DNA of 64,000 nt from Naegleria gruberi (lineage: Eukaryota), in the NCBI GenBank assembly GCA_000004985.1, contig GG738864.1; one strand, given 5' to 3'. Position 1 is the first letter of the stretch; every line of letters starts with the position of its first letter. Below, piece after piece: positions 1,361 to 63,667 of the stretch. The translations under genes were made by a program, and so were the position numbers. The notes below the pieces were generated by a model, which did not search any database, had not been told where the DNA came from, and worked only from the letters and a program-made list of their open reading frames with translations.

Positions 1361-1749
1361 TTTGTTTTTTACAGTTTTGTTTGAAATTCAGTGTGAATTG
1401 GTCTCAACATTTATAGATGAATCACACATGCCTAGTTGACCTAATTTAGAAACAAGATGATGGTAAAGGACATCTTTTCAAACAATTTTCAGAAGAGAAT
1501 CTCTATTTCAATCTAATGAAAAGTAATTGAGACAATCCCTACATCACCAAACAGCACCAATAAGTATCTACTGTTCTATTCGAATATGAATGAAAATTCG
1601 AAAGTGAAAATAAACAACTTTCCAACATGACTTTCACAAATATCTCCAATTACAGCCAATCACATTTTTTCCTCGACCAATTCTGTATCGGCTTCATTAA
1701 GTCCTATCATTTCCGACTCAAATTTCCAATTTAACTCAATTACGAATAA

Positions 1750-3483: not shown

Positions 3484-4041
3484 ACACTTTACAATAATAA
3501 AAAAATCAATTTACAACATTAATAAAGAAAAAACGCAAAAATGTGCAGGTCACCTTTCCAAGTAAAAATGACAAATTAAAATATCAAGTAACAAAAATGG
3601 GCATTTTAAATACTGTGAATCTTTAAGCTTGGCTGATTTTTTTTTTACCTATGCTGATCGTTGTTGGCTTAAACCTCCTTCTCATACAACAACAAGATAA
3701 ATTATTCATGACGAACATTTACCAAGCATCACAACTAAATGGTCCAAATTAGTTCTTGTCGAATTATGTTTGGTGATGCACCACCAACAAGAAGCCTCTC
3801 TGAATATTATTTGAAGTACCAAAATCAAAAAAAGAAGCACAAGAAGCCTAATAGACAATTCGTATTGTTTAGCTCCTCCACTTTCCGAATATTTATAATA
3901 ATATAATACTAATAGTACTACTATTATTATTACTGTTAATTGGTTGAACAAGAATCTTTGTGTTACTCATTGACTAATTTTCTATATACTGCTGCTTCTT
4001 TTTAGACAAATATACAAACAACAATTACTACTAACTAAATA

Positions 4042-7000: not shown

Positions 7001-7586
7001 TGAACACAATGGTCAACTTGTTCAAGCAAGTAGACTTGGTTATCGTATCACTAAGAAATTCGTTAGAACATTCTTTGGTAGATTATTCACCAATCCTAGC
7101 TCAGTCTTTACTGATGATATGCTCCAACCTGAAAAGCAAGGTGTTGATACATTTGTGAAATCTCTTGGTATTATTTTGGATACATACAAGTCAGTTGCCT
7201 TGTCTTACTTTGAAGATGGTTCTATTGATGGTGCTTGTCCACCACTTAAGGCTGTACTCCACGTTATGGCTCACGGTCACTACAATGGAAAGAGCATTAA
7301 TGACTCAGAAATTCGTCAAATGTTTACTGAACAAGCTCTCTTGTCAAGTGAGTGGTATAAGGAAAGACTTGCAACCCGTCAAAAGGTTCTCATTAATTGT
7401 TTGAACAGAAGTAAGGAATATCTTACAAACTTTTCCCATCAACCTCGTTACAGTGATTTGGCTGAAAAGTTGAACATTAACGAAAAATTGTCCTATGTCG
7501 AAAGTGAACTTGTTAAGGTTTCTGATGTTAAATATTTGGAAGATTTGGTTGGTCATTTAGGTACAGATCCATTCATGTATAAATAA
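4042..7586 (+). CDS. Large (~1,166 aa) conserved enzyme-like protein of unidentified family; two exons.
   Basis: Exon 1 is 4042..4174 (MTTHCSFFEGKELSDSIGYYTDLEKWNEDQTTLKQYVNLKLSAS plus one nt). The donor is GTAAGC at 4175 and the 47-nt intron ends at TAG 4221. Exon 2 is 4222..7586, in frame with the 1,093-aa track ORF. The composition is globular and non-repetitive throughout, with Gly-rich motifs (GTVGTGTYCHKPSTISGGGKSE), which is typical of a metabolic enzyme. No catalytic family was recognised by eye. Confidence 0.6.
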
Positions 7587-7631: not shown

Positions 7632-10600
7632 TCACAAAAAGGTATCAATTGTTTCTTTCAGCTTTTGTTTAGAACATGGCTTACAAATTACCATATCAAC
7701 AGTTTTCATATATTGCTCAGTAGAAAAATCAGTGAGTGCATCTGCAGTTAGCATTACAATCTTAATATTATCACCATACTTCTTCTTCAATATTGTGCTT
7801 GCCTCTAATCCATTCATATTTGGCATGTGCATATCAGTAATAACCAGTTTATGCTTGTTAATGTCGAATGCACGAACAAGTTCTTCTCCATCCACAACAG
7901 CATCTGCTGTTTGTCCAAGATGGGATAAAAGTTTCAGTAGAACCTGTCTATTAATTGCATTATCTTCTGCCACTATTATCTTGTTATTCGATGGTTCTAT
8001 ATCAGCAGGTTTGGGTTTAATATAAGGTTCCATCTTTTTTTGAGTTTTTTCGAATTGCTCCAAATAATTTTCTTGTATTTGCACTTGTCTCTCAATGGCA
8101 TTATGAAGAGTAGACAACTTGAATGTCTTGTGACCTAAATCTGTCGTTGACTTAGACTGAGCATTAGCAATGATAGACTCTCTTCTTTTGGATTCTTTGA
8201 CTGGGGATAATTTATCAATTTCCATTGGAAGTGTTAAAGTGAATGCTGTTTCATACTTTGGTTCAGATCTTAAGGAAATTACACCTCCCATTTGTTCAAT
8301 AATTCTTTTCCAAAATTAGTAATTTAAAATTATTTTCTACATACCTCTTAGTAGTACACAACCCTAAACCTGTTCCTGGACTGACACTCTCATTCAAGTT
8401 GTGTAATTGTTGGAACGGTTCAAAAATACTCTGTTGCTTTTCATAAGGAATTCCAATACCATAATCTGTCACCGAGATATCTAACCAAATCTTTGTATCG
8501 TCACTCTCTTGGGTTTGGTTGACTGAACACTTTAAATGAACACTTGTATCTGGAATGGATGCTTTGATAGCATTGGTGAGAAGGTTGATGATACACTGTT
8601 GAAGTCTGGTTTCGTTAGTTTTGACTACTAATGTTTCTAAAATCTCTTCAATTTCAAATTCAATAGTAACCTTAAATTTGTTAGCATATTTTTCCAATAG
8701 ACAAAGAACAGTTCTCAGAGATCTTGACAAGCTAAATGATACAATATTATCACGACTTTGAATTACTCTTGGAGATATAGCCTTATCAGTATTGACAATT
8801 GTATTATATGAAATGTTCTCTGTTTCATTTTGAGTGGTGGTATGCATAGTTGGAGCGGCCTTTGGTTTCTTGTGATCCAAATCGATAAATACAAGAATAT
8901 CTTCAATGAGTGTTAGAAGAATACTATTTGAGGCATGAATGATTTCCAAGTGGTCGTATTGTTCACTAGTTAGAGGTGTTTCCTTCATTAATTCTATAGA
9001 TCCTAGGGATGAAAGAAGAGGCGTTCTCAACTCGTGACTTACATGAGAGAGGAAATTATTCTTGATTTGAACTGCCTCCTTAAGTTTGGTAGCAATATTA
9101 GTTAATTTCCTATATTCTACAGAGATGTAAATACTGGCAAATACTGCAAAAAATCCAAATATCATTACCATTGAAATGGATGGATAATTTTCAATTACAA
9201 TCATTACTGCTGTTTCTATACTCATATCACTCTTATCATTCAAAAGAGAAATCAATTGATACAGCATGTAGCAAAAGTAGTGAAAAGCAATATAGTAGAA
9301 TGGAAATTGTGCCCATATCACAGTTTCAATATCATCTGTACCGTTCAATTCAAGATGCCTTGAAGGATTGTTATGTTTCTTAGAGTGCAGAATTGAATCT
9401 CTATATTTGCATGCTGCAATAGATGCAATAGAAAATAAACTCATTGGTGTTAACAACATTTTCGAGTCGGACATTAAAAACCTCAAAGTAAATAATAATA
9501 AATTGAAAAAGACCAATTGACTCGTCGAGTAATGAACAGCATAGGACGTCAGTTTGTGACTCCATGAAGAAGCTAATTCATCATCATGTGTTGGTTTTTT
9601 CTTTGCCTTTTTTTCCATTTCATTATTGTTTAAGGATGATACTCTAGAATAGGTTTTACTATCCTTATACAAATCATTCACGTAGGAAGGTAAATCTCTC
9701 AAAAAAGACCACTTGACACTGACAAATCCCAACATGCACAGCATCAACATGATTAGTGAATTAAAGAGTCCTTGTCTGAAATAAGTCGTCAGTACAAGGG
9801 ATAAATAGTCCAAAAAGACAAACATTATCATGAATTTCGTTTGTAAATCAATAACTTGTTTCCAATTCGTAAATATGGAAGGAAGGCACTGTGATAATCT
9901 CCTCGACAAAATTGCTGGTAAAATATCACTCTCACCATCACTCGAAACATTAGAAAACGATCTATTCATGTGTTGTTCTTGTTCCTGTTGGTGATAATTA
10001 TAAATATTATTGTTACTACTACTATTACTATATACATTTTCCAATCCTGATGCTAAATTATTCTCATCATGATCATTATCCAATGATGAACAATTATTGG
10101 CCATCGATTTAGATTTCCTCATGCATAAATTCGCATCAATGATATTGTCCAGCGACATCTTCTTATTATTGTATTTCATATTATTATTATCATTTTGCGT
10201 AGTGGGTAGAAGAGGATTTTCAGTCAAATGATGACTATGCCTCCTTTTCAAAATACCCGAAGGTGATGATTGCATGCGGGAAAGAAGTGAAGGAGAAAAG
10301 GAAGCTTGAATGAAGGAGGAAGAGGATTGGGAGGATGATAAACTTGTACCTTCTCTTTTTGTTGGTATTTCCTCTTCTTCTAAATGACTTGTATCGATGG
10401 AATTCATATTGGAAAAGAATTCATCATCATTGGTGATGGAATTATTTACTTGAAAGTTTTTGGACAGTTTCATACGATAATTAGCTAATGCTCTAGCTTC
10501 CTCATGCATGTGTTGTTGTGGTGGCACCATCGTATCATCAGATGTGGTTGATGGTGAGGATGATGTTGTTTTTGTATTTGAAATGTCTGTGGTATCCGAG

Positions 10601-11097: not shown

Positions 11098-12303
11098 CCA
11101 AAGGTGTTACAATACTCGAATAATACAACAGGATCGGGTGTTGTTGGAGGCTATTTTTGTTTCAGCTTTACTTGTGTTTTTCAATAATGAAAACTGTTGG
11201 AGTAGTGTGTTACTAGTTGTTCTATGTGACAAATTCCAAATAAAAGCAGCTACAACTTTCTTATTTGTTGTAATTGCTAGCTTTCACAAATATATTTATG
11301 AAATATTGGAATGTTGAAGAACAAGAGGAATATGATGATGATAATGATGAAAGAGGTTTACTCTAATTTTTTTAAAAAGATAGGTGGAACTAGGCGGAGG
11401 GAAAGAGAATCCCATTTAGAATCTTTGTCAGCTATTGGCATTTCAGGGTAGTCCATCTGTCGGCATCTTACAAAATCCTCAATAAATCTTTTTGATTCTC
11501 CCAATTGGTTGTTAGCCAACTGTTGTTTAAGGAAAATGAGTTAATAAGTAATGTAGTTGTAGCCGGTATTGAGGTCTTCAAGTCAGTAGATTATGTTCAA
11601 AGTTGTGAATGTTTTATAAACATAGAATTGGAGAACTTTTAATGGTTTTGAAGTATACTATACATCTCAAAAAGAACCCGATCAAATTAGATGCAGAATA
11701 TCGAGCAATAATGTCAAATAGTGGCGCCATTGCACAGATTCTATCTAATGGTCATCCAAACATTCGCCAACTATCCTCTTTAGAATTCATTTTCGTTGAG
11801 TTGTATTGCATTGATATTTGAAACAGTTCAATCTTGGGTGTTTGAAACAGAAAATACACAGAATTGTGTGCAAAGGACGGAGTGCTTGATCTGTGGGTGT
11901 TGGTAGCCATACGAATGAAATTTGAAGGTTTCCAACTTGGTCAGAAAATTTCGTATGCATTTTGGGAAACATTTGCTAACAATAAAGTTGTCAGCCAAAT
12001 ATTTTTTAAAGTAATGTTTCATTAAAGATGGGTTCCCAAATCACAATAGAGATTAATTTCATCGATCGAGATTTTGAATAGTAGTTTGATTAGTGCCAGG
12101 AAGAAACTCTGTAATGGAAATACTCCAGAATAATCACGAAAATTGGTCAGGAATCTCGGTGTAAATTGTAAACAAAGTTTACAATGAGATATCTCATAGG
12201 GTATTACATTCAATCTGATTCTAACTGTTTGTAATTCAATCAAACATATTATTGCAATTTCTAGAAAAATGAATCTTTTTCGTTTACGGCATTAATACAT
12301 GTA

Positions 12304-14450: not shown

Positions 14451-15171
14451 TTACATTACGGAACATGTGTCACAAATTCCAAATCTCCTGTTCTTCTTCT
14501 TTTCTGGAAGAAGAGTCTCTGCATTATCATGATCTTCTCCATCAGGTGATTGAGAGGTAAATCTATCAATAACCAATCCAACAAGAGAAGTTTCTAGTGA
14601 TGATGATGAGTCATTCTTAGCACTCAATTCAATATATGGATAATTGAATTGGTTTGCCCATGATTTTGCTGTATTAATGATCTTTTCGCAATGCCTCCTA
14701 TTAAAATCAGTAATTTCATCAGTCTTGTTGGCAACTATCACAAATCTTGGTTGAGTTAGAAATGTTAAATTAGAAATAATGAGAAACTTACGGAAAGCTT
14801 GTTGTGGAAATTGATAAACCGGCTTGAATTAAAAATTCTTCTCTCCACTTATTCAGGGAGTTTGCACTTTGTAAATCCGTTACTGAAAATACCAGGCAAA
14901 CTACATCAATATCACGATAAAAAGCAACTGATAAAGAGGCATACTTCTCCAATCCTGCATTATCCCACAGCTGCAGCTTGTAGGATTCATCCTTATAATC
15001 TATAGCTTGAGAATTTAAACAGTCACTTCCGATTGTTGGTGTATAATTTGTATCAAATTGGTCATATACCAATTTTTCAATAATTGAAGTTTTTCCTGAT
15101 TCTCCATTCCCTAAAAATAATACTCTCAATGTTTTTGGAGTTTCTAAATGAGATCCCACTATCGATTTCAT
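14451..15171 (-). CDS. Rab/Ras-like small GTPase with a CaaX box and a switch-II Gln-to-Leu substitution; 2 exons.
   Basis: - G1: LFLGNGESGKTS.
- G2: YTPTIG.
- G3: WDNAGLE (canonical WDTAGQE).
- Exon 1 is 15171..14792, followed by a 46-nt intron (GTAAGT donor at 14791, acceptor AAG at 14746).
- Exon 2 is 14745..14451. It gives FVIVANKTD (G4 NKxD), ELSAKN (G5) and C-terminal CDTCSVM, a CaaX prenylation box. Confidence 0.8.
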
Positions 15172-35493: not shown

Positions 35494-37987
35494 TTGGGCA
35501 ACAAGTTAATTCCTTCATACAAAAGAGTACTCATTATCATTCATCACTCTCATCATCAAATAGGAATGTTGGATATTACTCATCAATTACCTCCGGAAAT
35601 ATTGTCAAAAGTATTTTCATATGTAGCTAGGGAACCATTGTATTTGTATTGCTTTTCAAATTTACCACTCGTATGCAAGACTTTTAAGAAATTATTGGAA
35701 ATGGCAATTTGCGTTCATCATGATGAGGGATGTATTGATGATCAATTAGAGTTGTCATTTTCAACAAATATCAAATCAACCTTTCAACATAATTTAGTGG
35801 TTGATTTTCTGACTCTTCCAATGCTATCAAAGATTGTAAACTCAAAAAGATTGAGTGATGTTTTGAGTGGTGTTTCTCAAATTTCAATTTTGGACCTTTC
35901 TAATCAGAGATTAATGTTTCAAGCACTACTAAAACAAAACATCAATGAATTACTCAATATTTTAGAGAGTATCTATTTGAAAGGAAAGATAATTAGCAAG
36001 ATTTATTTGTGTGGATGCTTTTCAATCGGAGAATCAATTCAAATGACTAATTTTGTAAAAAGTTTAATAACCATGCATAGAAAATCCACTTCAAAGAATC
36101 TATACATTGACGTTTCTCCTCTCTTTTCTCACAATGAGGCATCTAATGAAGCAACAGAATATTTGAGCTATAATATGGCTGTCACAGAATTGCAAGCAGA
36201 ATTTGAAGATCAGGGTATTCAAATAGTAGATTGGTTTGATTTATTATTCAATCCTATTGAAAGTGACACTGAGTTTTTAGAAAGATTGACCTCTGTAGAT
36301 CCAATGAATATTCCACACGTAAATGTAAAAGGGTGGACTCTTCTACATTCCTCAATACTCAACAGCTATTTCAAAAGTACTCAATACCTCTTGAGTTTAC
36401 CACAAGTTAATGTAAATATTTTCAGTGTTGCAAGTTTCTCCAATGATGACACAATTCGAATTGAACATGATGAAGATGAAATTTCTCCAATTCTTCACAA
36501 AACTGTTCCTACTGTAGATTTCAAATTGAAATACAAAGGCACACCATTATTCTTTGCCTTATATAAGTTGACTTCTAACACTCAATCCTCCTCCTCTAAA
36601 GATGGTGAAGTTGTAGATATGCTTATCCAAAGAGGAGCATCTGTTAATATTGTAGATAATTATGGAAGATCATTCCTACTGATTGCTTTATCATATGGTT
36701 TTCCATTTGATTTTATTACTCATATTGTAGAGAATTTTGGTCAAGTGCACCAATGTGACAACAATAAGAATAGCATTTTCCATCAAATATTCTATTCTCC
36801 ATCTCTATTGAAAGATACAAGGAAAACCAAAAAGGTCTTGGACTTCCTCTTCACCAAAGATTCTCTATTGAGTAATCAAGCTAACGCACCTGGTTTATTA
36901 CCTATTCAAATTCCTTTCCTCTTTTCCAATATGAAAAACATTCTCAATAAGGACTGTGCTTCAGAGTTAGTAATTGCTATTGCACATTTCATCAAATGTG
37001 TAGATGTAAATTTAGGATTGGAAGCATCCACCATGTATATTAATATGGCTATTGATGACTGCCTAACTCTTATCAATGAGTCTAAATTTTCCAAAAAGAA
37101 AATGTTTGTCATTACAAACAAGATATTTATTGGGCTATTGAGAATTAAACTAGATATTTCCTATCATATTGACAAGACAGATATTAATCAAGTAAGAAAT
37201 GAATTTATGAGATTGGATGACGAGTTGGGTCATAATGTTCTTCATAGAATGAAAAAATTGGATTGTATCAAGTCATTCTTTAAATTTCTAGAGCTAGATA
37301 GAGTATCCTATTACTTTTATATTAATAATCCAGATGTTAATGGAAATACTATCCTCCACCATTTAATATCATCGAGTGAAAATGAACTTCAACTCTCGAA
37401 CGATGTCGACAGAATAGTTGAAGAATTATTTGGAGATGTAGGATATAGAAACAAGGAGGGAGAAACACCAACATCTCTTTCAGCTTTGAACGGATACTAT
37501 GCAACAGTTCAGTAAGTTTTTCGAATATTTTTGTAAACTATATAATTATTTCAGTTTTATGCTTTCCAATCAACAAACAGCTCACTACTCTGAGAGACAA
37601 ATCATTGCCCACAACGATAATATACTTCACATTCTAAGAAGTAACAGAGAAAGTGCTTCCAAGAGTTCTGACAATAAGAGACCCTGCCATTCCATCAATT
37701 CTTGTATCAAACTCATTGAACAACAAAACGAAATGCTCATTCAAAATTCCAGAAATCCAAAAACCAAATCCATTAATTTAGCACTCCTCGAGGAGGAATT
37801 AAGAGGAGACAGCTACTCTGATGATAGTAGCACCTCATCAAGAACTAGCTCTGCACCCTCACTCTCTCTCATGGATGTCATCAATCTCAGCAAGGAAAAG
37901 AAACAATCATCCAAGAAGAAAGCTCAAGCCAACAAGAGAAACAAGAAGAAGAAAAGCAAGGAAAAAGACTTTGCCCTCGTCAAGTAA
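35494..37987 (+). CDS. F-box-like plus ankyrin-repeat protein; 2 exons.
   Basis: Exon 1 is 35494..37511, ending ...GYYATVQ-. The donor is GTAAGT at 37512, the intron is 43 nt and the acceptor is CAG at 37554. Exon 2 is 37555..37987 and continues in the frame of track ORF 37499. F-box-like: QLPPEILSKVFSYV. Ankyrin units: KGWTLLHSSILN; YKGTPLFFALYKL...MLIQRGASVNIVDNYGRSFLLIALSYG; VNGNTILHHLISS. The C-terminus is Lys/Ser-rich. Confidence 0.55.
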
Positions 37988-38158: not shown

Positions 38159-39608
38159 ATGTCCACAACATTCCTTGGTATTGTCATTCATTTTGCCAAT
38201 CCTTTGAATGGCGAGAATCAGAAATTACTTCTCGGAAAGAAAATCAACATTAACGATTATGATCACTTGATCACTCTGATAAAACAAAAGATTAATGAGA
38301 GTAATTCATCATCGAGTATTGAATATAATTTTTATAACGTCTTGTTGGAGGTGGAAGATGTAAATAGTAAAGGATCGTTTCATAGGCTAACGAATTTTGA
38401 TGAATTAATAACAAACAAAGACAAGGCTATACAAATTAAAGTTTCATCAGTTGAAATTGTTTCAAAGAGTAAAGAAGCTAAACCAACAGAAACTTCATCT
38501 CCTACCGATCAATCATTAACATTCCGATTGAGTCAATGTGCCAATGATGAATTTACTGATTATCAAGAGGATTTTGAAGATAAATTAATTTATGGAGATG
38601 ATTTATCGACAGTGGAAAATAATGCACAAGCACAGAGAACTGCCAGATGGAATGGAAGATACGAACCAACAACACTATTGGGATCTGGAACTTTTGGAAA
38701 AGTATTTCTTTGTGGAGAGTATGCATTTAATGGTACTCATAAAGGAACTGTTGCTGTGAAATTGATTAATTTATTAGGAACTGTTGAAGATTTCAATAGG
38801 AAAATTAAGGTTAGTTTTCTTTTTGAGATTTATAATGACTCTTTATTAGGAAGCCCTCTTCATGTTAAAATTGAAACACGATTCTATTATGCCATGTTTG
38901 GACTTGTTTGAAATTTATGATAAGGATACAACAGAACAATCGTTGGCAATTGTGTCTCCATATTATATTCATGGTGATTTGATGAAACAATTGCAAACAC
39001 AAAAGGAAAAGAAGGAACCACTTCCAGAGGAAATTATTTTTTCAATCACAAAAGATATACTCAGTGCTTTAACATATTTACATTCTAATGTTGGTGTGGC
39101 ACACAGAGATATTAAACCAAATAATATTTTCTTGGAAAAGATCAATTTGGGAAGGAAAACAGTCAAGATGGTTCTTGGAGATTTTGGAATAGCTCGAGAA
39201 ATGACAAGTGAAACAATGAAAAATGCCACAACTGCAGGTACACCACTCTATCTTGCTCCTGAAGTCAATTTTGGTAATTACAATTTCAAATGTGATATTT
39301 ATTCATTAGGTGTTACCCTATATCAAATGCTAAGCTTGGATTTGGAAACAAATTTGATTTCAAAATGTTTTTCAAACCATCCTTTAGATACATTACAACA
39401 ATCTTCCAATGCCAAGTACATTTCTGATTACACAGAACAAATGATTATGAGAAACTATCCAAAAGAAACCAAAACACTGAAGAAACTGAAAGGTAAGCAA
39501 TTCTCTTAATAATGAGATTTTTAATCTTTTCAAAAAGAAATGATGTTTTTAATGTTGACATACAACTACAAAAAGAGACCTAGTGCCAAATACTTCCTAG
39601 AGCAACTT
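38159..39608 (+). CDS. Protein kinase (Ser/Thr-type catalytic loop) with a ~170-aa non-kinase N-terminal region; 3 exons.
   Basis: - Exon 1: 38159..38809, containing GSGTFGKVF and VAVKL.
- A 40-nt intron follows (GTTAGT at 38810, acceptor TAG at 38849).
- Exon 2: 38850..39491, containing HRDIKPNNIF, DFGIARE, GTPLYLAPE, DIYSLG.
- A 45-nt intron follows (GTAAGC at 39492, acceptor AAG at 39536).
- Exon 3: from 39537, encoding ...YKKRPSAKYFLE... (subdomain XI RP motif).
- The exon-3 stop is read at about 39606-39608, but my reading of this line is uncertain by 1 nt; the alternative stop is 39650. Confidence 0.7.
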
Positions 39609-45776: not shown

Positions 45777-48700
45777 ATGAAAGCATGTTTTTTCGTTCTA
45801 CTCTTGCTCTGCATCTTTCTGTTCAGCCTTGCAAGTCAAATTGACTCACAAAGCCTTCAATATAATATCAGCACGGTTGCAGGTGGTGGTTCTATTGTGG
45901 GTGATGGTTTATTAGCTAATGAGGCTATAACAAGCTACCCGTGTCAATTGGCAATTAGTTCGATTAGTGGAGATTTGTTTTTTGGAGAGGTGGTATCCAA
46001 TAGGATTCGTAAAATTACATCCTCAACTGGTGTGATATCTACTATTGCTGGAACTGGAACTGGTGCATATGGTGGAGATGGCTCCATGGCTACTGCTGCT
46101 CAATTGTTTTATCCTTATGGTGTTGCTCTAAGTTTGGGTGGTGAAATTTATATAGCAGATTCGAATAATAATAGAATTCGTAAAATAGCTACAAATGGTA
46201 TTATTACAACAATAGCAGGAACTGGAACACGTGGATATGATGGAGATGGTGCTTTGGCCACAAGTGCCAAGTTGAATTTTCCTTCATCCATAGCAATTAG
46301 TGCAACCAATGAAATTTATTTCACAGACCAATTGCAATCATAGGATTCGAAAAATAGCAACTAATGGTAATATCTCAACAATTGCAGGAACTGGAACTGG
46401 CAGCTATGGTGGTGACAATGCAATTGCAACAGGTGCACAACTTTATGCACCTGCATGTATTGCAATAGATTCTAATGGTGAATTTTACATTTCCGATTCA
46501 ATGAACCATCGTATTCGAAAAATAGCTACTAATGGTATTATTACAACAATAGCAGGAACTGGAACACATGGATATGATGGAGATGGTGCTTTGGCAATTA
46601 ATGCACAATTATACAGCCCCACGGGGGTTGTTGTCAACTCAAATGGTGATGTTTATATTGCTGACTCAGGTAATAACAGAATTCGAAAAATCTCAAAAGG
46701 ATACATCTCAACAGTAGCAGGAAATGGAATAGCTGGATATAGTGGAGATGGTGGACTATCAACAAGTGCTCAATTAGCCACTCCCCAATCAGTTGCTATT
46801 AATTTAAATGGCGAGATTATAATTGCAGATTCTAATAATAATAGAATTCGTAAAATAGCAACTAATGGAAAAATTTCAACAATTGCTGGAACATCATCAT
46901 TTGGAAATAACATACCAGCTACTTCAGCATCCATCTCACCAGTTGGTGTTCCCACTCTCTACAATAATAAGATAATTTTCGCAGATGAATCTCAAATTAG
47001 ACAAGTAGACCTTGCAACTAATATCATTTCATTAATATCTGGAACTGATTATTTGGCAAGTCCTACAGCAGCTATGTATTTCAACAATGAATTATATATT
47101 CTCTATTCAAAACTCAATTTAGATAAGCCAAAGATTAATATTGTTTCAAGAGTTGTTGGTTCTGAGGGATATAATGGCGATGATATTGCAGCCACTAGTG
47201 CACTGTTGAATTATGCTCGCTCAATTGCTGTCAATTCAAATGGTGATGTTTATATTGCTGACACTTATAATAACAGAATTCGTAAGGTCTCATTTTCAAC
47301 TGGAATCATTTCAACAGTAGCAGGAACTGGAATTGCTGGACAAAATGGTGATGGTAATTTAGCTACAAGTGCACAACTAAATTTTCCTTCAGGAGTTGCT
47401 GTGAGTTCAAATGGTGATATTTATATTGCTGACACTGAAAATCATAGAATTCGTAAGATAGAAACTAATGGATACATTGCAACAGTTGCAGGATCTGGAG
47501 CATCTGGATATAGTGGAGATGGTGGGCTGCTAACTAGTGCTAAATTCCAACAACCTCAAGGAGTGGCTGTGAGTTCAAATGGTGAGATTTATATTGCTGA
47601 CACTGAAAACCATGTGGTTCGTAAAATTTCAACTTCGAATGTACTTTCTACAATTGCTGGAACTGGTTCTTATGGATACAATGGTGACGGTGGATTGGCA
47701 ATTACTGCAAAATTATTCTCTCCCATAGGAGTTGCAATAAGTTCGAGTGGTGAAGTTTTTATTGCTGATAATAACAATCACAGAATACGTAAAATTGCAA
47801 AAGATGGCTATATTTCAACAATTGTTGGCACTGGTTTGAATGGGTATGATGGAGATGGCGATTTGGCTACGAATGCTAAATTGGGTAATCCTCAAGGTGT
47901 GACTCTAAGTCCAACTGGTGAATTGTTTATTGCTGACCAAAACAATCATAGAATTCGTAAAGTAGCAAGTAATGGATATATTTCAACTGTTGCTGGTAAT
48001 GGTAACTTTGGATTTAGTGGAGATGGTGATTTGGCAACAAATGCTGAATTGAATAGTCCTTCAGGAATAGCATTCAGTTCCATTGGTACCATGTATATTG
48101 CTGATCGTTTAAATAGAGTAATTCGAAGAGTAATCTCTGGTAATATATCCACCATTGCTGGAGGTGTTGGTGATGGAGGACCAGCTACTGGAGGATACAT
48201 TCAAGCACAATCATTTGACATTTCTTCAACTGGTGAGATTTATATTGCTGACACTGAAAATCATAGAATTCGTAAAGTTTCAACATTGGGTAAAATTTCA
48301 ACTATTGCAGGAACTGGTGCAATGGGATACAGTGGTGATGGTGGATTGGCAATTACTGCAAAATTATCCTCTCCCGTAGGAGTTGCAGTTAGCTCAACTG
48401 GTGAAGTTTTTATTGCAGACCGAGACAACCATAGAATTCGTAAAGTAACACTTTCTGGTATCATTACAACCATTGCAGGAAATGGAACTAGTGGTTTTAA
48501 TAGTGATGGAATTGAAGCAAAATTTGCTCAATTGAATAGCCCTTCCTCAGTCACAATTTCAGGTGGTGAAATCTATATTGCTGACACAAACAATCATAGA
48601 ATTCGTCAAATATCCAATACTGGTATTATTAAAACAATTGCTGGAAATGGATTTGGTGGATATATTGGTGATGGTGTATTGCCACCTAATGCTCAATTGA

Positions 48701-51700
48701 ATAGTCCTTCAGGAGTTGCAATTTCTTCCACTGCTGAAATTTACATTGCAGAAAATAAGAGAATTAGAAAACTTACAGCGTTCTGTACAGAGAATGGTGT
48801 GTTGATTGATGGAAAGTGTGTATTTCAATGTTTTGGATATACGAATAGTAATTCCTCACTTGTTTGTTCTGGAAAGGGCAACTGTATTGGAAATGATAAG
48901 TGCAACTGTTCATGGCCATACTCTGGTTCCAAATGTGATGAGTTTTATTGCAATGGAGTGTTGAATACTAACAAAACATTTGTGTGTTCATCTCATGGTA
49001 CTTGCTCATCTCCAAACAATTGTTCTTGTGTCGATGGTTTTTATGGAAATATTTGTGAATTCTTTTATTGTAATGGCGTACAACAAAATAGTTTAAATGT
49101 ATGCTCAGGTCATGGACTCTGCTCTTCTTTGAATAATTGCACCTGTCAACAAGATTATTCAGGCATTGATTGTGAAAATTTCCATTGTTATGGACTGTCT
49201 AGAGTTGATCCTAAAGTTTGCTCATCTCATGGAATTTGCTCTTCCATAAATAATTGCTCATGTGCAACTGGATATGGTGGATCTAAATGCAACGAATATT
49301 CATGTTATGATGTGAATTCTACGAATAAGACAGTTTGTTCTGGAAGAGGAACTTGTTCTTCTCCCAATAATTGTACATGCGATCCAGGATACTATGGATC
49401 AAATTGTGAATTGTACGATTGTTATGGAATATCCAAAAACAATTCGAATGTCTGCTCAGGACATGGTACTTGCATTGCTATCAATAATTGTACATGTACA
49501 GATGGTTACTATGATACCAAATGTGATTCATTCAATTGTGCAGGAGAGAAATTCACTGGTCAATCACTGTGTCAGAATAATGGTACTTGTTCTAATCCTG
49601 GTAATTGTGATTGTCCTTATCAGTTTGGAGGTGCCAGATGTGAATATTACAAATGTTATACCTATACTTCTAATGAAGCAAAAGTATGTGGCGGGCATGG
49701 TACTTGTTTAAATTACAATAATTGTTCTTGCTCTGGCAAGTGGATTGGTGACGATTGTACACAGACTACTTGTTATGGTAAAAGTTCAAACTCTAGCTCA
49801 GTATGTGGTGGAAGAGGTAATTGCACAGACTTTAATCAATGCACATGTTATGATGGGTATAGAGGTGTCGAATGTCAACACATTGTCTGTTTTGATAAGA
49901 TTGAAAACGATACATCAGTTTGTTCAGGAAATGGCAAATGTCTAACATCAAACAATTGTACATGTCAAATTGGTTATGTTGGAAATGAATGTCAATATCA
50001 CGAAATTTATTTGAATACCTCATCTGCCATAATATTTTCATTCCAGGAAAGTTTAATGAAATTGTTGCCAAATGAGAGTGGAATATTTTCATGTTCTGAA
50101 ATTTTCACTGATTCTGAAATTGCCAAATTTGGAGAAAGTACTTCGATTTCTTGCCAATGGAGAAGAAATTCACTCCTAATTCATCTTGGATTTGATTATT
50201 CTATTCAACAATACTCAATTATTCAATCAAAATTCAACTTTTCAATGAGAGTTTCTAGCTTGTCCTCAGTTTCTAATAGTGATGCTCCATCTCCAACTTG
50301 TTCTTTCGGATATGTATTGAATGAAGCTTCTCCATTATTGGATGTAGTGATACGTTTGAATTGTGATGAGAATTTGCATGGTTTTAAAAAGAGTAGAACC
50401 AGTTGGATGTGTAGTCAATGTACAGGAGCAATTTCATCAATTTTAAGTAACTATTCGAATAGATCCAGTGTTTATATTCCAATTTCGTATATGAACGCTT
50501 TGAATCCTGTTCAAGGATACAAGACAATTAATTTGCAAGCTTCTTATTCATCATCTGTTTCTTCCACCATTTCCACTAGTAAGGAAGTAAAGGTTCAAAC
50601 CTATACGAAATCTTTACCTCCAAGTTATTACTGGCTAAGTGATAATTATGATGGAAAAACCTATTCATGTGTTGGCCATAATTGTATCATTGAAACTTCA
50701 TTGAATAGTTTAAACTCCTCAATTTCTTATTCATTCTCTGGTTTATTTAGTTTATTGAACACTGATTTATATTCGAAACAAATGGTGAGATTGATAAATG
50801 AATTTTCAGGAGGAATTGTCGACAGTGAATTCAGTTCTAACATGCAAGTTTTTGGAGTTCAACTCAAGACCTATGTTTACTTACCGTATAGTATTGATTC
50901 ATTCAAATATTCCACATTTACAAATTTGGATTATGTCATGACAGGCGTCAATAGAACCTACTCAATCAATGCAGATAACTTAATAACTATAGGTTTGACT
51001 ATTGATGATCCATACATTTCAAAATACACATTAAGTGATTACATGGTATTCTCCTGGAAATGTTTCCAAGTTTCTCCTTCTAATAGGTCTTTAATTTTGA
51101 CCGATAATTTGTGTTCCTCAATAACTGACAATGCCAAATCAAATATTGAATTGGATATCAGCAAAATGTCTTTGAAAGAAGGTTCATATTTAATATCTGC
51201 TTCAATTTCATCGACTAAATACTTTGTTACAACAGTTTACAATTATGAAGGATGGATTGACTTGTTGGGAATTTCACAGGATTCTCCTCAGATAACTACA
51301 GATTATGTACCTGCTATTACTCCTTCTCATCACAATATTTATTTAAGAAATGTGGTGAAATCTTCAACAAGTGTTTCATTCTATTGGAAACTCAAAAGTG
51401 GTGAATTGAATATTGACGAAACTGTTGAAGATTTCCTTCAAAGAAATACAGTTTCTAAATCTATCTTGGGTAACAATGTTGAAATTATCTTGAATATTGA
51501 CAATGATTATCTCATCCAAGGAGAATATTATGAATTTGAATTGTCAACCAAGAATTCTAACGGTGTTTCAAATATTTCCATTTCAACAAGAATGGATTTC
51601 ACTCCTCGATTGTCATGTAATGTGGAAAATGTGAAGAATGAAGCTAACTTGACCAGTTTTGAATCTTTAATATCTATTACATGTGTAAAATTGCCATACG

Positions 51701-54134
51701 AAAGTATATCAAGTTTCGTCATGGAATTCCATTCACAAAACGAAAGATTAGGAGTCATTTCGAATACTCCAAAGAAGGCTCTTATTACCAGAGTTCCTTA
51801 TGCAATGGATGGAACAGTTACCTTAATCGTGAAACTTCAAAATTTATATGGATCTATTGGAATTTATAGAACTACTATCAGCGCTCAATTACCAAATGCT
51901 TTGACAAGTGACAACTCTATTTCTTCAAGATTTACATATGTATCCAAACAATTCCAAATTCTCAAAAATGCTCAACCAGCCAAAATTGAAGTTTCCAACG
52001 AAGTCAACACCTTACTTTCTTTATTAATCCAAAACGAAACTCTTTCTAAAATTTCAGAGAAAATTTCAAAGGAATTGAAATCTGATCAATTAGTTTCCTT
52101 TAATACAATGCTCAAAGAAATGCTAACCCTCACCAAGAGTCTACAAGACATTACTTACAAAGTTGATGAAAGATTAATTCAATTAATTCTGCCAATTGTC
52201 AACAAAATTTCCACAATTCTCAAATTAACTCTTGACACATCGTCATTATCCAATTTTGCTTCAGAATTGGAAATTTGGTTGGACTGGATTTATTCAGGAA
52301 TGAATAAGGCACTCAATTACTATCCAACTTTCATTTACAAGGAATTATTAGATGAATTTCATTTACAAGAAATTGTTTCGTTACAAAATATACTTTCGAA
52401 TATATACCAAAATAATTTGGATCAACAATTTAAATACCACAAGTACAATTTACAATATATCAAGCTTACAGGAAGTAATAGTGATAATTCAAGCTTTGTG
52501 GAAGATGTTGAGTTTTCTGATTTATTGAATGACAAGTCAATTTCACTTTCTGTTTCTAATTTTAAAGTTGATATGAAATTACCAAGTGATTTTACCAATC
52601 AAATTTCATTGAAATCAAAATCAAAACTATACTATTCCATTACCTCATTCAGTGATAATCAAACTGGTTCAAAACTTTTACAAAACAAACCAATAATTGA
52701 CCTATCTCTGTACGATACATCTTACAATGCAATATCAGTTGACAACATTAATCCACCAATAGTTTTCAAGTTCCAAGGATTGTTTTCCACTAACAAGACT
52801 AATATTAACACAACTTGTGTCTATTACAATACCATACTAGGAAAATGGTCAACCAATGGATTGCAAACAATTACAAGCGTTACCAAACGAACTGAAGAGT
52901 ACATGTACTTTGATATGGAATGTCATTCAAGTCACTTGTCTGTATTCTCAGTTCAAGAGGTTGATTACAACACCCCAATTATACCAGCCATTTCATCTAA
53001 CAAAGCTTCAAACCAACAAGAAAATCTCACCATTATTTTAGCTACTGTTTTACCTGTTAGCTTTTTAATCCTTATTTTCATTATTATCCTCTTTGTGTTT
53101 ATCATTTTACTATTCAGATTTAAGCAAAAGAAAGCAAATGAATTTGCCATTGCAACCAAAACCAATCTTGAAATGGAAGGTTTCTCAAGCAGTGATTTCC
53201 CATCCTCAGAAGGAAGCATGTTTATTCATCCTCTTATGAGTATTTCCTCAAATGGAACAACTAGTGAAGCATTCAATCCATTGTCAAGATATTCTGATTT
53301 AGTAAGAATTGGCCAAGGAGCTTTTGGAAGTGTTTTTAAAGCATTTGATAGTAAGACGTCAACTGTTAAGGCGATTAAGGTAATTAAATATTCATCCATG
53401 GAGGAGTTGAATAATTTCATGAAAGAAGGAACGCAGTTGATGAATGTGACACATCCTTATATTTTGAGAGTGAATGATTTCTTTGTGAGTAAGGATCAAT
53501 TGCTATGTATAGATATGGATTTTTATGAATTAGGAGATTTGGTCAAATTGACCAATGTTGAATTTGATTGCTCGGAGAAGTTAATCAAACAAATTATTTA
53601 TCAAATGTGTCAAGCTTTGGATTATATTCACTGCAATATGAAAATCATTCACAGAGATATCAAACCATCTAATGTTTTTGTAAAGAGTATGGAAAATGAC
53701 GATATTCACATTATTGTTGCCGATTTCGGATTGGCTAAATCAAATATTGGTGGATCAATGAATAATTCCTATGCAGGTACACCTATATTTATGGTAAGTT
53801 TTCAAATATTTCTTTCGATTCGAATAATTTTTAGTCTCCTGAACTTGGCTTGGGTGGAAAATATTATTACAATACTGATATTTACAGTTTAGGTGTTACT
53901 GTATATCAAATAATGACCAAAGACACCTCTACTTCAATCAGTCAATTGTATCTTGGAAAGGAACAAAATGAAGTTACAACGCTATTGAGAAAAAAGCTTA
54001 AAGATGGTGGACATTATTCTGAACGAGTTGTGGAATTGGTTTTACAAATGTTAACAAAGGATAATTTAACTAGGCCACAAGCTCAAGATATTTTGGAAAA
54101 TTCCTATTTTGATGATTTGAGAATGAAACGATAA
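45777..54134 (+). CDS. Giant receptor-like Ser/Thr kinase: signal peptide, ~25 NHL repeats, ~20 EGF-like modules, ~1,300-aa unknown ectodomain, TM and protein kinase. Interrupted by an apparent +1 frameshift near 46328 and by one 41-nt intron in the kinase domain.
   Basis: - Track ORFs 45777..46343 and 46300..53892 encode the same ~55-aa NHL unit (...NHRIRKIATNGIITTIAGTGT.GY.GDGG.AT.AQL..P.GVA....GEIYIAD..) in two frames.
- Deleting one C from GACC at about 46328 restores ...EIYFTDNCNHRIRKIATNG..., matching the repeat consensus.
- EGF-like units: CSG.G.C...N.C.C..GY.G..C.
- TM segment: LTIILATVLPVSFLILIFIIILFVFIILLF.
- Kinase motifs: GQGAFGSVF, VKAIKV, HRDIKPSNVFV, DFGLAKS, GTPIFM.
- Donor GTAAGT at 53794, acceptor TAG at 53834.
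- The last exon runs from 53835 and encodes SPELGLGGKYYYNTDIYSLGVTVYQIMT...RP.A.DIL.., through to 54134. Confidence 0.7.
45990..48790. repeat. Tandem array of about 165-nt coding repeats (NHL units) with the recurring core aatcatagaattcgtaaaat.
   Basis: The nucleotide motif (a/g)a(t/c)(c/a)a(t/c)agaat(t/a)cg(t/a)aaaat(a/t) recurs about 20 times at 150-170 nt spacing across the 5' third of the giant gene. Confidence 0.7.
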
Positions 54135-54252: not shown

Positions 54253-55925
54253 TTATTCTTCATCTGATTCGAAAGCCACATTCTTCTTTTTAGGGAATGT
54301 TTGCAGAGCTCTAGATTTTCCTACCGGGCTACTAACCAGTGGATTTGAGATTAATCTACTAAAACTTCCACTATTTGTAGAAAGGGACAGTTGTGCAAGG
54401 GATTGTTTCAAGGTTTCACAAATCTCTTCCCATTCAGGTCTTGCATTCATGTCTGCTGACCAGCATTTAGTAATGAGCTTGATTATCAAATTATTTACAA
54501 CGTTATACTCAATTCTAAAGTGCTCACCAAAGAACATTTCCCTGAGCTCTGTTTGGGTTGGTATCTTTGGACGCATTTCTTCATGAATCACTTTGTGTGT
54601 AATATCATAAATGTTGAGTCCTGGATACAACTCCTTTTCAAAAATTAACTCATATATACAAATGCCAAAACTGTAGATATCCGCTTTGAATGAATAATGA
54701 CCTTCTGCCAAAATCTCTGGAGCAGTAATTTCAACTGTACCACATTTAGTGTGCTTCTTTTGTTTGTTGTTAAATAGCCTAGCAATACCAAAATCTGAAA
54801 TCTTTAGAGTCCAGTCATTAGTTACAAGGCAGTTAGATACTTTCACATCAGAGTGAATAATATTTTTTGATTTGAGATAGTTCAGTCCGTTAGCAGCGTC
54901 CAATAGCAATTTACATTTCTTTTTCAGGGTGAGTCCAGATTTGAAAGAGCTCTTTTGTAATCTTCCTTGTAAGGTCTCATCATCGATTGAAAACCTGGAA
55001 ATGTGTTGTGTATTGAGCTTTATCAGGTTGGTGTCATCTAGCTCCGTTGTCGGTGGGTGATTAATAGGACTCATGGTCATGCCTGCACCAGAATAGGATG
55101 TTTTCAATAGTTTGTCTAAACTTCCTCTCGAGCAATATTCTGTGACAATATAAAAGAATGGAGGTTTGATAGATGCAGCAATGAACTGCACAATATTTGG
55201 ATGTCTGATTGTACTCATTATTTGAGTCTCCTTCATGTACTCTTTCAGTGGATCCTCCAACAAGTCACAAATTAAGCATTGCTTGACTGCAACAAGAACA
55301 TTGAGATATCGTGCCTTATAAACAACTCCACTACTACCAACACCAATTTGTTCCATCAATTCCAAATCATCAGATGAAATACTCATACTTCTCAATTGCG
55401 GAGAGACTCGAATGATCGCATCATTCAATTCCTTTGACAAATCATTGTATGGTAACTCTTCTGGATTTTCAACAGGTTTCAACTTGTTGAAATGTGCATT
55501 CAAATCTTCAGCAATATGAGAGCTAGTATTTAAATCCGTTAAACCACTATCATTCAAATCAATTACTATCGAATTTGAATTATCAACCCTTGATCCCACA
55601 TTGGTGATTTAATTTGCATACTCTTAAAATCCATCTCATCATTCATTCCATAATATTCACCACTATCCCTCTTTTTCATGAGTGGTTTCGTTTTCTCCGA
55701 ATTTTTACAACAATAATTACAAGTTAGTGTATTTACAAGTGTTCTACATAATCCTCTCCTTCCCAATCGACTCTTTATCATACATAGCAAACAACCACTC
55801 ATCATGATATTGACCAATAACATGGCAGAACTTAGCACTATCAATGACCACTGAATCACAGGAGAATCATTCAGTGGTAAAAGCAAGATATTGTTCTCAA
55901 CACTCATCGGAAAATAATAACACAA
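54253..55925 (-). CDS. Membrane-anchored protein kinase (TKL-like) with an HSD (not HRD) catalytic loop; 2 exons.
   Basis: - Exon 1 is 55925 (or the MSVENN Met at 55904) to 55622. It encodes a short N-terminal segment, a TM helix (VIQWSLIVLSSAMLLVNIMMSGCLLCMI) and a Cys-rich juxtamembrane region, ending ...GMNDEMDFK-.
- The donor is GTATGC at 55621, the intron is 33 nt and the acceptor is AAG at 55589.
- Exon 2 is 55588..54253, in frame with track ORF 54253..55599.
- Kinase motifs: GVGSSGVVYKA, VAVKQ, HSDVKVSNCLV (catalytic Asp retained), DFGIARL, APEIL, DIYSFG. Confidence 0.65.
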
Positions 55926-60268: not shown

Positions 60269-61314
60269 ATGAGTCAAAATGATCAAGGTTCACCACTATC
60301 ATCAAATTTTGTATTTTCGGAACAGCGCTGTGATGATGAAGAAAATTCCTTCCCTTTGGAAACAGCGATATTAAAAATGAACATCATGATGATAACGGTA
60401 TTAATTTTAGAGATCAATTTCCTGATGAAATGTGTTATGAAGTATTGTCCTTCCTTTCGCATAGATTTATTTTGAGGACGTGTACGCTGATTTCGTCTCA
60501 GTGGTATAATGTTATTAAGGAACGTTGTTTGTTTTCGACTATGTTCAATTCACCCGTTACTAAAGAAAGAGCTCAATTGATGATTAATAGCCCCTTTCTG
60601 GAACGAATAATCTCTGTAAGTTGTACACAAGCAGCAACTACATGTAAACAATATTGGAAAGCCATTGGAATGATGAAACGATTGACTTATATTAACACAG
60701 TTAGTAACCAAATAACCTCGAATGTACTGTACATTATTAAGAATATTACAAAATTGAAATCGCTCCAGACATTATATATTGGATTTAATCCATTAGGAGA
60801 CGAGGGAGTTAAATTATTGGGTGGAATACCCAGTTTAACAAGTCTTAGTATTTGTGCAACCTCCTCAACTTTTGAATCAATGGGAGCTATTAGTCAATTG
60901 AAGAATCTCAATTATCTTGATGTTGCTTATTGTGACATTGGCGTGGAAGGGTCTAAAATAATTAGTGGAATGACCCATTTAACTGAACTTGATATTTCTC
61001 AGTCAAATATTGGGTCGGACGGAGTTAAATATATTTCTCAAATGTCAAATTTGAAAAATTTATTTATACCTGCAAATGAAATATTGGACGAAGGGGCTTT
61101 ATTTATTAGTAGTGGATTGAAAAATCTCACATTTCTCGAAATCAGTTGTAATGCACTGACGGATATAGGAATCTCAAGTATAGCTAAAATGAATCAATTG
61201 GAAGGTTTAGCCATCAACAAGAATAACATTGGTGAGGAAGGTAGAAAAGCTCTCACTCAAATGAAGGCATCCAGAACTAAATTTTATTTAGAATGTGATG
61301 ATTTGGTCCAATGA
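60269..61314 (+). CDS. F-box-like plus RNI-type LRR protein with a frame discontinuity between its N-terminal leader (frame of 60269) and the body (frame of 60430).
   Basis: The body ORF starts at 60430 (MCYEVLSFLSHRFILRTCTLISSQW...) with LRRs to 61314. The same frame stays open upstream to 60340 (...NGINFRDQFPDEMCYEVLSFL, completing the F-box-like LPDE..L motif) but without an ATG. An ATG-initiated leader (MSQNDQGSPLSSNFVFSEQRCDDEE...) sits in the adjacent frame from 60269. I found no usable GT..AG intron. A 1-nt indel in the GATGATGAAGAAAATT run at about 60335-60345 would fuse the two frames. Confidence 0.55.
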
Positions 61315-61396
61315 AGGTTTGAGTCCTCGCAACCAAAGACATTTAGATTATTAAAGGTGTCATCAAGTTTTAGTCAAACTGTTGCTGTAGCATGAT

Positions 61397-62902
61397 TTAT
61401 TTTTCTTTTGAAAATTTGAATCTATTTCCAAGGGCTAGTTGGAACAATGAGGAAGATAGAGAAATACCCTTCTTCAAACCAATTGCTTGATTCGAAGATC
61501 CTCCAACAGTTACAGACAAATCAGAGGCACTGTGTACATCTGGAATGTTCACTTTTTGTTTAGCATTCAGTTCTGGAGCTGAATTGCCACATACTCTTGC
61601 CTTAATGTTTGTCTTCCTAGAAAATATTGACCTCTTATTATTGCTGGCGTCGGATGTTGTGGTTTTAGATCTCTTTCTCGTTAAAAAGGCCTTATGTTCT
61701 GAGGAGGCCAGAGATTCTTCCTCTCCTTCTGAACAATCTGTGATATCACTTTCTGTATCACTACTCGTTTCATTGTTTCTATAGTAAAATAATGAGTCTG
61801 TGCTGCTGCATAGAGACTCACTTCGTGGTGTGGATGTTGAGGTTGGAGTTCCAGATTTGACTTTTCTTGGTGTTGTTACGAAACCAAAGTCAGTTCCTTC
61901 TTGTTGCAAGTTATAGATGCAATTCCAGGAATCAGTGAGCATGAGAACCTTTTTGAATACCTTATCAACGTGGTATCGTTGTTTGGCACTAACTTCAATA
62001 TAGGAGGAGAGATTGTGTTTCAATTTCATTTCTCTCATTGCTTGTCTGACTTGTTTCTTTGAAACAACCCTTGAACACATCATATCAATCTTATTGGCAA
62101 TTATTATTATTGGGAAATGTTCAATTTTGGATAATTGAAACTTTTTCTCTTGGACTTCTGCAACAAGTTGCTTCATTTTCTCAAAACTCGATTCGTTGGT
62201 AACGTCAAATACAAACACAAAAACTAAACTTTCTCTGATATAAGAGTCTTTCAAGTCTGCGTATTGATCTGAACCAGAAGTGTCTGTTATGTATAATTCG
62301 AAAGTTTCCAACTCTGTCTTTCTCACAATTTTGCTGTAAGATTCTTGAATGGTTGGATCATGGAAATTAGGGAAGGATTTTTGAACATATTGGGAAATGA
62401 TTGAGGTCTTGCCACATGCTTCATCTCCAACTAGGCACATTCTGACCTTTCTATTGTAATGTATCGAATAGTTATTCGATACATAATCGTCTTCTTCGTC
62501 CATTGTAGTGGACACTGTATCAAGAAAATCGCTTTGCATGGTGGCAACATCAAGTGATTGACTATGCAATCTATCAAAATGTTGTTTACATGGTGTTCTT
62601 GGAGTGATATCAGATTCACTCTTTGTAGCAGATGAAAGATTTGAAACAGTTCTCTTCAAAACTTGATCTGTTATAACATTAGACCTTTGAGTCAATCCAT
62701 CAGAGTTGGTAATAAAGCATGATCTCAATGAATATGGAGAACAATTACAAAAGATTGAATTATCATCTACAAAGAGTGTGTCCATCCCACTGCAATAACT
62801 TATCGAGCCACTCAATCCACACAAATCACTACTCGATGAATAAGTGGTCGTCATCCCAAAATTGACACAATTACTACTACTTGTCTTTTTATAAGCTGAC
62901 AT
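61397..62902 (-). CDS. Ras-like GTPase domain embedded in a 501-aa Ser/Thr-rich protein. Switch II lacks Ala, Gln and Glu (DTSGSD). No CaaX box.
   Basis: - G1: LVGDEACGKTS.
- G2: FHDPTIQESY (Ras-type PTIEDSY).
- G3: ITDTSGSDQY.
- G4: IANKID.
- G5: EVSAKQ.
- About 140-aa N-terminal and ~170-aa C-terminal Ser/Thr-rich extensions. The C-terminus is ...KFSKEK, with no Cys. Confidence 0.7.
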   Translation of the reverse strand: MSAYKKTSSSNCVNFGMTTTYSSSSDLCGLSGSISYCSGMDTLFVDDNSIFCNCSPYSLRSCFITNSDGLTQRSNVITDQVLKRTVSNLSSATKSESDITPRTPCKQHFDRLHSQSLDVATMQSDFLDTVSTTMDEEDDYVSNNYSIHYNRKVRMCLVGDEACGKTSIISQYVQKSFPNFHDPTIQESYSKIVRKTELETFELYITDTSGSDQYADLKDSYIRESLVFVFVFDVTNESSFEKMKQLVAEVQEKKFQLSKIEHFPIIIIANKIDMMCSRVVSKKQVRQAMREMKLKHNLSSYIEVSAKQRYHVDKVFKKVLMLTDSWNCIYNLQQEGTDFGFVTTPRKVKSGTPTSTSTPRSESLCSSTDSLFYYRNNETSSDTESDITDCSEGEEESLASSEHKAFLTRKRSKTTTSDASNNKRSIFSRKTNIKARVCGNSAPELNAKQKVNIPDVHSASDLSVTVGGSSNQAIGLKKGISLSSSLFQLALGNRFKFSKEK

Positions 62903-63667
62903 TCTTGTTAATTCTACTATTACTACTACTCTATTATCATATCCAAAAGGAAACCTTGCAATTTATTGGCTTGAAAGAGTTCTTTGCGCGAAAAATTAGA
63001 GAAGCCTTTGTGCGTTACAAGCTTATTGTTGTTCTGTTTTTTTTTGAGCGGTTCGTTGGGATACAAAGGTTTTTTGACTCGCAACGCACGAGCTTGTGGT
63101 TCAACTCACACACACGTGAGAGAAAAAGGCTTTTTGATTATCGGTGGAGTTCATCACTGCAAACACATGCAAAAGTTTCAAATGTCGTATTTATAGCATG
63201 CAAGTTTACGCAAGTGGTAAGGAACTTTATCTTCACTTTCCGAAATGAACATATACTTGTCAGAAATCTAAAATTCGCCAAAATACTGGATTGGTAGCTT
63301 CCTTCTTCAAGATAATAGTTGCATTTTGATAGCGCGGGAATGATTTACAATATCAATGAATTTGTCTTTATGGGGAAATTTTTTTTTGACTCGTTTCATG
63401 ATTTTCACTGATTTACAATCAACCAGAGGATTTCGGTATTTATTGACTTTAATTTTGCTTTATTTGAAGAAATTTACTGTGAATGTCAGGTGGTTTTTGC
63501 GATTTTGTTTGGCTGTTTGGGTTGCTGAGTTACATTTTAGAATTCTTCTAACCTATTCGAAAGTAAGAACTATGGCAGGTCAAAGTACTTTAAAGGAGTG
63601 ACCCATACCAAATAATATTAGTAATGTGTTTGTAGTAATTCATTAGTTTTTTTCTTTCAAAATAAAA

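Follow-up and report, generated by a model that had tools for sequence, protein, structure and literature searches.

A single surplus base interrupts the NHL repeat array of a large Naegleria receptor-kinase gene: a tentative young null allele or a consensus error

The window analyzed here is the whole 64,000-nucleotide (nt) stretch of contig GG738864.1 from Naegleria gruberi. It contains a large receptor-kinase gene which, as written, is divided between two overlapping reading frames on the plus strand. Behind an A-rich leader, the ATG at 45777 begins a frame of 188 codons (open reading frame A, or ORF A) that stops at the TAG at 46341-46343. A second frame, ORF B, lies in the +1 frame; it is open from 46294 (the prior stop being the TAG at 46291-46293), is listed from a GTG at 46300 and runs for 2,530 codons to its end at 53892, with a 50-nt overlap between the two frames. 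Removal of one base from the overlap (C 46329) together with splicing of a 41-nt intron yielded a single protein of 2,771 amino acids (aa), ending at a TAA at 54132-54134 and arranged in the order signal peptide, NHL array, EGF array, GPS motif, transmembrane helix and kinase. The features of this locus are as follows.

45777..46343, plus strand: ORF A, with the start codon, the signal peptide (MKACFFVLLLLCIFLFSLASQ), the first 3.5 NHL repeats and the out-of-frame stop; Pfam NHL and TEN_NHL matches on the repaired protein; colinear with the N terminus of the N. gruberi predicted protein P0001
45864..48783, plus strand: NHL repeat array of ~17 units with a 56-codon period and the frame break in unit 3; Pfam PF01436 (E = 9e-112) and PF25021 (Teneurin NHL)
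46328..46335, plus strand: zone with one surplus nucleotide, CCAATTGC, from the deletion scan with a repeat profile and the 169-nt unit spacing
46330..53793, plus strand: main exon, in the +1 frame, encoding the remaining NHL units, the EGF array, a large ectodomain specific to Naegleria, the GPS motif, the transmembrane helix and the beginning of the kinase
48784..50001, plus strand: EGF-like repeat array of teneurin type; Pfam PF07974, PF25024 and PF23106
52816..52956, plus strand: GPS-like motif (...CVYYN...W...MECHSSHLSVFSV) just outside the membrane; Pfam PF01825 at 22.5 bits, exactly the gathering cut-off (E = 1.6e-4 on the isolated segment)
53026..53124, plus strand: transmembrane helix with basic stop-transfer residues, read from the hydrophobic stretch LTIILATVLPVSFLILIFIIILFVFIILLFRFK in the translation
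53290..54110, plus strand: cytoplasmic protein kinase domain interrupted by an intron; Pfam PF00069 (E = 6.5e-50, aa 2505-2764)
53794..53834, plus strand: 41-nt spliceosomal intron, GTAAGT...TTTTAG, whose removal completes the kinase domain
53835..54134, plus strand: last exon, with the stop TAA at 54132-54134

Translation from the ATG at 45777 left the ancestral frame after Asp184 and then passed through four wrong codons (QLQS) to the TAG at 46341. The product as written was a secreted stub of 188 aa with the C-terminal end ...EIYFTDQLQS. The first ATG of ORF B (46309) gave MKFISQTNCNHR..., which is without a signal peptide. A preliminary description of this DNA had placed the end of the 45777 frame at the TAG at 46341-46343 and had found the downstream frame open from before 46300, and both observations were verified. 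It had further proposed that one C be removed from the GACC at 46326-46329. Deletion of C 46329 did produce ...SATNEIYFTDNCNHRIRKIATNG..., which is consistent with the adjoining NHL units, but this was only one of several equivalent placements, as removal of any single base within 46328..46335 restored ...EIYFTD(N/H/Q)(C/F/L)NHRIRK.... The sequence of the site, GACCAATTGC, contains no homopolymer and only CC, AA and TT doublets; its one-base-shorter form would read GACAATTGC or an equivalent sequence. The description of the gene as otherwise intact at about 2,700 aa held with respect to its integrity but not in detail, since the repaired protein has 2,771 aa and requires the intron at 53794..53834. 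The PF00069 match extended over profile positions 1 to 263 of 263 only when this intron was removed.

The number of surplus bases was examined at the level of DNA by a repeat-spacing test that is independent of any reading frame. Start-to-start spacings of the NHL units were 165, 168, 171, 315, 333, 432 and 603 nt, all multiples of 3, and the only exceptions were the intervals from 46196 to 46365 and from 46167 to 46336, each of which was 169 nt against an expected 168 nt. A hidden Markov model (HMM) of the repeat was then trained on 10 clean units of this protein, and all single-base deletions across 46290..46345 were scored. The best scores (78.6 to 79.6 bits) were obtained with a deletion anywhere in 46328..46335, while a shift at the stop codon scored 69.8 bits and positions upstream of 46301 scored less than 60 bits. 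A global alignment with P0001 (Biopython) was colinear unit for unit and ungapped at the site (AISATNEIYFTDNCNHRIRKIATNG versus AISPSNEIYIADTYNHRIRKVNTNG). A 2-nt deletion would cause the same frame change but makes the unit one residue too long, and hence a 1-nt insertion is the more economical reading. All three lines, from spacing, profile and orthologue, showed that exactly one nucleotide is surplus.

The best database match of the repaired protein was P0001 (2,807 aa), which covered 96% of the query at 63% identity; two N. gruberi paralogues (P0017 and P0019) scored ~40%. P0001 carries the name 'predicted protein [Naegleria gruberi]' in NCBI and UniRef. Like the window gene, it has a signal peptide, an NHL array with the same degenerate insert, an EGF array, a long lineage-specific region, a GPS-like CxSSHLSVFSV motif, a transmembrane helix and a kinase, and its NHL units correspond one to one with those of the window gene. 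Comparison with an orthologue had been suggested in the preliminary description as a check on the frame break, and it placed the homologous unit of P0001 in a single, ungapped frame (...NEIYIADTYNHRIRK...), whereas the window copy has one extra base there. Full-length colinearity and a shared domain order assign the window gene to the orthologue group of P0001, comprising NHL-EGF-GPS-transmembrane-kinase receptors. As judged from the sequence, the gene is a new orthologue in an uncharacterized Naegleria receptor-kinase family and the correct biological unit is one receptor kinase of 2,771 aa, orthologous to the N. gruberi gene. The C terminus of the public P0001 model (...GTPIFMVSFFNSSLIINKFSLLNLA) resembles a wrong-frame read-through of an intron homologous to 53794..53834, and this model seems to lack approximately the last 95 residues of the kinase domain.

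Teneurin-type NHL and EGF modules are joined in the receptor to a membrane-adjacent GPS motif of threshold score and to a Ser/Thr kinase on the cytoplasmic side. No publication with this NHL-EGF-GPS-kinase combination came up in literature searches, and a query for Naegleria with NHL and kinase was empty. Within the NHL array, 46186..46260 and 46523..46597 (units 3 and 5) were identical at 72 of 75 nt while units were otherwise only 60 to 75% alike in DNA; this near-identical stretch, which lies 68 nt upstream of the break, suggests local gene conversion in the array. The first NHL unit (45960..46010) was degenerate in the window copy (SGDLFFGEVVSNRIRK) compared to the orthologue (IGEIIIADSNNNRIRK), with loss of the conserved Ala-Asp of the blade.

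Searches for closer relatives were made in public databases and metagenome assemblies. Look-ups of exact products (ORF A, ORF B from the ATG at 46309, three neighboring ORFs and the N. gruberi orthologue) matched no record. A site-spanning DNA pattern with a flexible gap had no matches among metagenome contigs, although an exact pattern of 37 bases could miss a relative of 97.6% identity. A protein-guided locus search of metagenome contigs returned only NHL loci of ≤52% identity, which presumably come from bacteria and are unrelated to this gene. The unique first 75 aa of the protein, used as a query, gave no candidate, and the degenerate-insert region (aa 368-479), searched with HMMER against the full library, gave nothing above 54% identity. 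A relative was found through the neighboring Ras-family gene, in the ENA metagenome assembly ERZ929261 (run ERR1078381), with 97.6% DNA identity, or 2.4% divergence. The matching contig, k127_237515 (L001), aligned with window positions 60811..63417, with indels of 3 and 6 nt that keep the Ras-family gene in frame and a 230-nt gap at 61140..61369. The two sequences also differed by CCC versus CCCC near 61093 in a leucine-rich-repeat gene, where the window ORF is intact and the metagenome copy is cut short. The Ras-family protein query (window 61397..62902, minus strand) had a single match at E ≤ 1e-10 among 7,875 candidates, namely this 98% relative; given that Ras GTPases are ubiquitous, the single match is probably an artifact of the word-index search rather than a biological result. 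Another contig of the assembly, k127_28711 (L082; 7.4 kb), carries at 634..7134 an intact NHL-EGF-kinase paralogue of 2,166 aa (P0032) with 37% identity to the repaired protein, and the genome of the relative was therefore assembled well enough to be useful.

The age of the lesion was estimated from the state of the downstream frame. Point substitutions in ORF B would create a stop in 5.4% of cases, and the open 7.46-kb frame thus corresponds to fewer than ~13 substitutions (0.17% neutral divergence) at P = 0.5 and to fewer than 55 (0.74%) at P = 0.05; indels would tighten this bound further. As the bound is below the 2.4% divergence of the nearest public relative, the lesion, if real, is specific to a strain or haplotype. 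In the global alignment, identity to the orthologue was 59% in mature ORF A, 60% in the next 186 residues and 60% in the rest of the NHL array, and it reached 70 to 74% in the EGF array, the middle region and the kinase. Among the marks of a pseudogene, a disabling lesion was present (the frameshift leading to the stop at 46341-46343); neither further lesions nor relaxed constraint was found downstream, where 2,530 codons are open and identity equals that upstream. The copy would thus be at most a very young null allele.

Splicing across the break was examined by listing GT/GC..AG pairs around the site of length 3n+1, which numbered 21 at lengths of up to 120 nt (e.g., 46264..46300, 46300..46357 and 46271..46343). 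For comparison, five introns were verified elsewhere in the window.

8305..8344, minus strand: verified intron
14746..14791, minus strand: verified intron
37512..37554, plus strand: verified intron
38810..38849, plus strand: verified intron
55566..55621, minus strand: verified intron of 56 nt, GTATGC..AG

With the intron at 53794..53834, all six are 40 to 56 nt long and have donors of the form GT[AT][AT]G[TC] (GTAAGT, GTATGT, GTTAGT or GTATGC). The last intron in the list accounted for a second suspected frameshift at 55566..55608 (minus strand), which was resolved as this canonical intron. Small overlapping ORFs at 11828..12291 (minus strand) had translations that look noncoding.

An unconventional or tiny intron, or some other correction at the level of RNA, could in principle join the two frames, and the 21 pairs, such as those of 37 nt (46264..46300) and 58 nt (46300..46357), provide formal candidates. 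None of the pairs around 46300, however, had a donor of the GT[AT][AT]G[TC] type. Conserved NHL residues are encoded by frame A as far as 46328 and by frame B onward from 46330, which leaves no room for an intron at the break: each candidate would remove conserved residues, and only an 'intron' of one base would fit between them. The orthologue, moreover, is ungapped at the site, and joining at the RNA level is thus scarcely credible. The preliminary description had stated that no GT..AG pair could splice the frames together; this was literally wrong, but its conclusion stood, splicing being excluded by the donor consensus and the conserved coding sequence. The two frames could alternatively belong to separate, individually functional genes, one for a small secreted NHL protein (ORF A) and one for a receptor with its own initiation (ORF B), as both are open as written and ORF B contains the ATG at 46309. 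Against this, ORF A stops in the middle of a beta-propeller blade after 3.5 repeats, ORF B has no signal peptide despite ~2,200 extracellular residues before its single transmembrane helix, the 50-nt overlap leaves no space for a promoter, and the orthologue is one continuous protein with units matching one to one across the break; two genes are accordingly most improbable. Programmed +1 ribosomal frameshifting, whether antizyme-like or Euplotes-like, would involve reading of frame A to ...UCA and a +1 shift at UAG-G, giving ...EIYFTDQLQSRIRKIATNG... and a full-length receptor with a normal repeat length. Such a shift at UCA UAG G does restore the frame at the correct unit length (69.8 bits, with no stop), and a sense codon followed by a stop, four codons past the lesion, resembles the known stop-dependent +1 sites (UCC-UGA-U in antizyme and AAA-UAA/UAG in Euplotes). 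Homology, however, places the frame switch at 46328..46335, four codons upstream of the stop, and QLQS displaces the most conserved N-[HN] positions at a cost of 9 to 10 bits. No shift-prone or slow codon was found at 46328..46335: in the 0 frame, the break defined by homology reads GAC CAA TTG, codons that this gene uses often (CAA for 92% of Gln and TTG for 39% of Leu), and the same holds for TCA (35% of Ser). The 120 nt at 46336..46455 showed no stimulatory RNA structure (minimum free energy, -28.6 kcal/mol; z = -1.47; 16 of 200 shuffled sequences folded as well), and the two-frame arrangement was not conserved in P0001, which has one continuous frame. Literature searches found no report of frameshifting in Naegleria nuclear genes, and we know of no stop-dependent +1 frameshift mechanism in Heterolobosea. 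Without a shift-prone codon, a stimulatory structure or a shift in the orthologue, programmed frameshifting at the break appears very unlikely, in agreement with its ranking as the least likely explanation in the preliminary description. The fuller version of this explanation, in which the extra base is real and fixed and is bypassed at UCA-UAG-G, so that the receptor is made at full length with QLQS for NCNH in one NHL blade, is more doubtful still; if true, it would provide the Heterolobosea with their first reported case of stop-dependent programmed frameshifting in a nuclear gene.

Two explanations carry most of the weight, and they differ in whether the extra base is present in the organism. 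We propose that a real, very young and nonprogrammed 1-nt insertion lies in CCAATTGC (46328..46335), within NHL repeat 3 of a receptor-kinase gene conserved in Naegleria; duplication of a neighboring C, A or T is its most likely origin. The 2,530-codon remainder, having no signal peptide of its own, would not be made as a receptor, and the copy would be a null allele, specific to a strain or haplotype, possibly heterozygous with an intact second copy and not rescued by recoding, splicing or editing. The probability of a real young null allele, possibly heterozygous, was put at roughly 0.48. Alternatively, the gene may be intact in the organism with its 168-nt spacing, the base having been introduced during base-calling, consensus building or polishing, perhaps where the position was heterozygous or locally ambiguous, and this is quite possible as well. 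Several points weigh against a real insertion. A lone lesion in a conserved and otherwise intact 8.3-kb gene, with 2,771 codons, equal conservation on both sides and no secondary decay, is what a consensus error typically looks like. Isolated frameshifts in draft eukaryote assemblies generally stem from residual indels more often than from any other cause, and in draft genomes of protists such indels in the consensus usually occur at least as often as pseudogenes with a single lesion. The 72/75-identical stretch 68 nt upstream, within the tandem array, could locally disturb read mapping or polishing. On the other side, the site is not a homopolymer, and an error-prone context (a long homopolymer, low complexity or a nonunique repeat) was not found there apart from the one 75-nt stretch of 96% identity upstream. 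Within the 64-kb window, 179 homopolymer runs of ≥5 nt (36 of ≥6 nt, and up to 9 nt) inside ORFs of ≥200 aa were detected with no frame broken. Every other junction of large same-strand ORFs has a canonical 40- to 56-nt intron, leaving no other unexplained frame break and no other indel error of this kind in the neighborhood. Short reads should also map uniquely, since the local repeat units are only 60 to 75% alike. Given the nonhomopolymer site, the in-frame homopolymers, the introns at all other junctions and the divergence of the units, we lean slightly toward a real variant; that the extra base is truly in the DNA is thus weakly favored over a consensus error, on grounds of assembly quality. 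The earlier listing of an indel error and a very recent pseudogenizing mutation ahead of programmed frameshifting was supported by these tests.

For annotation, the locus as written yields a 188-aa stub and a receptor without a signal peptide and should be treated as one gene. A gene predictor may mask the break with a false intron (46264..46300 or 46300..46357), and short introns predicted in 46264..46357 should be distrusted. If the base is real, a large and conserved surface receptor has newly been lost from the strain or haplotype or is present there as a null allele, a result of modest interest for work on variation among strains or on adaptation to culture in the laboratory. If it is an error, one base of the assembly has to be corrected. 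In neither case is an open question affected. The feature is an ordinary single-base frameshift of an already known kind.

The gene resembles animal teneurins and adhesion-GPCR-type GPS/GAIN receptors in its Teneurin NHL (PF25021) and Teneurin EGF (PF25024 and PF23106) matches and its membrane-adjacent GPS motif, a likeness that does not extend to the frameshift. It differs from teneurins in having a cytoplasmic kinase, another domain order and a GPS match only at threshold, and no membership is claimed. Antizyme and Euplotes +1 sites share with the window a 0-frame stop (UCA UAG G), here in a 50-nt overlap, and a +1 shift that gives a full-length product; in the window, however, there is no stimulatory structure, the shift is absent from the orthologue and the homology break lies four codons before the stop. 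The closest likeness of the lesion is to young single-lesion pseudogenes or null alleles and to draft consensus indels, from which it shows no difference and in which, as here, a single frameshifting indel lies in an intact, conserved ORF with no secondary stops and no downstream drop in conservation.

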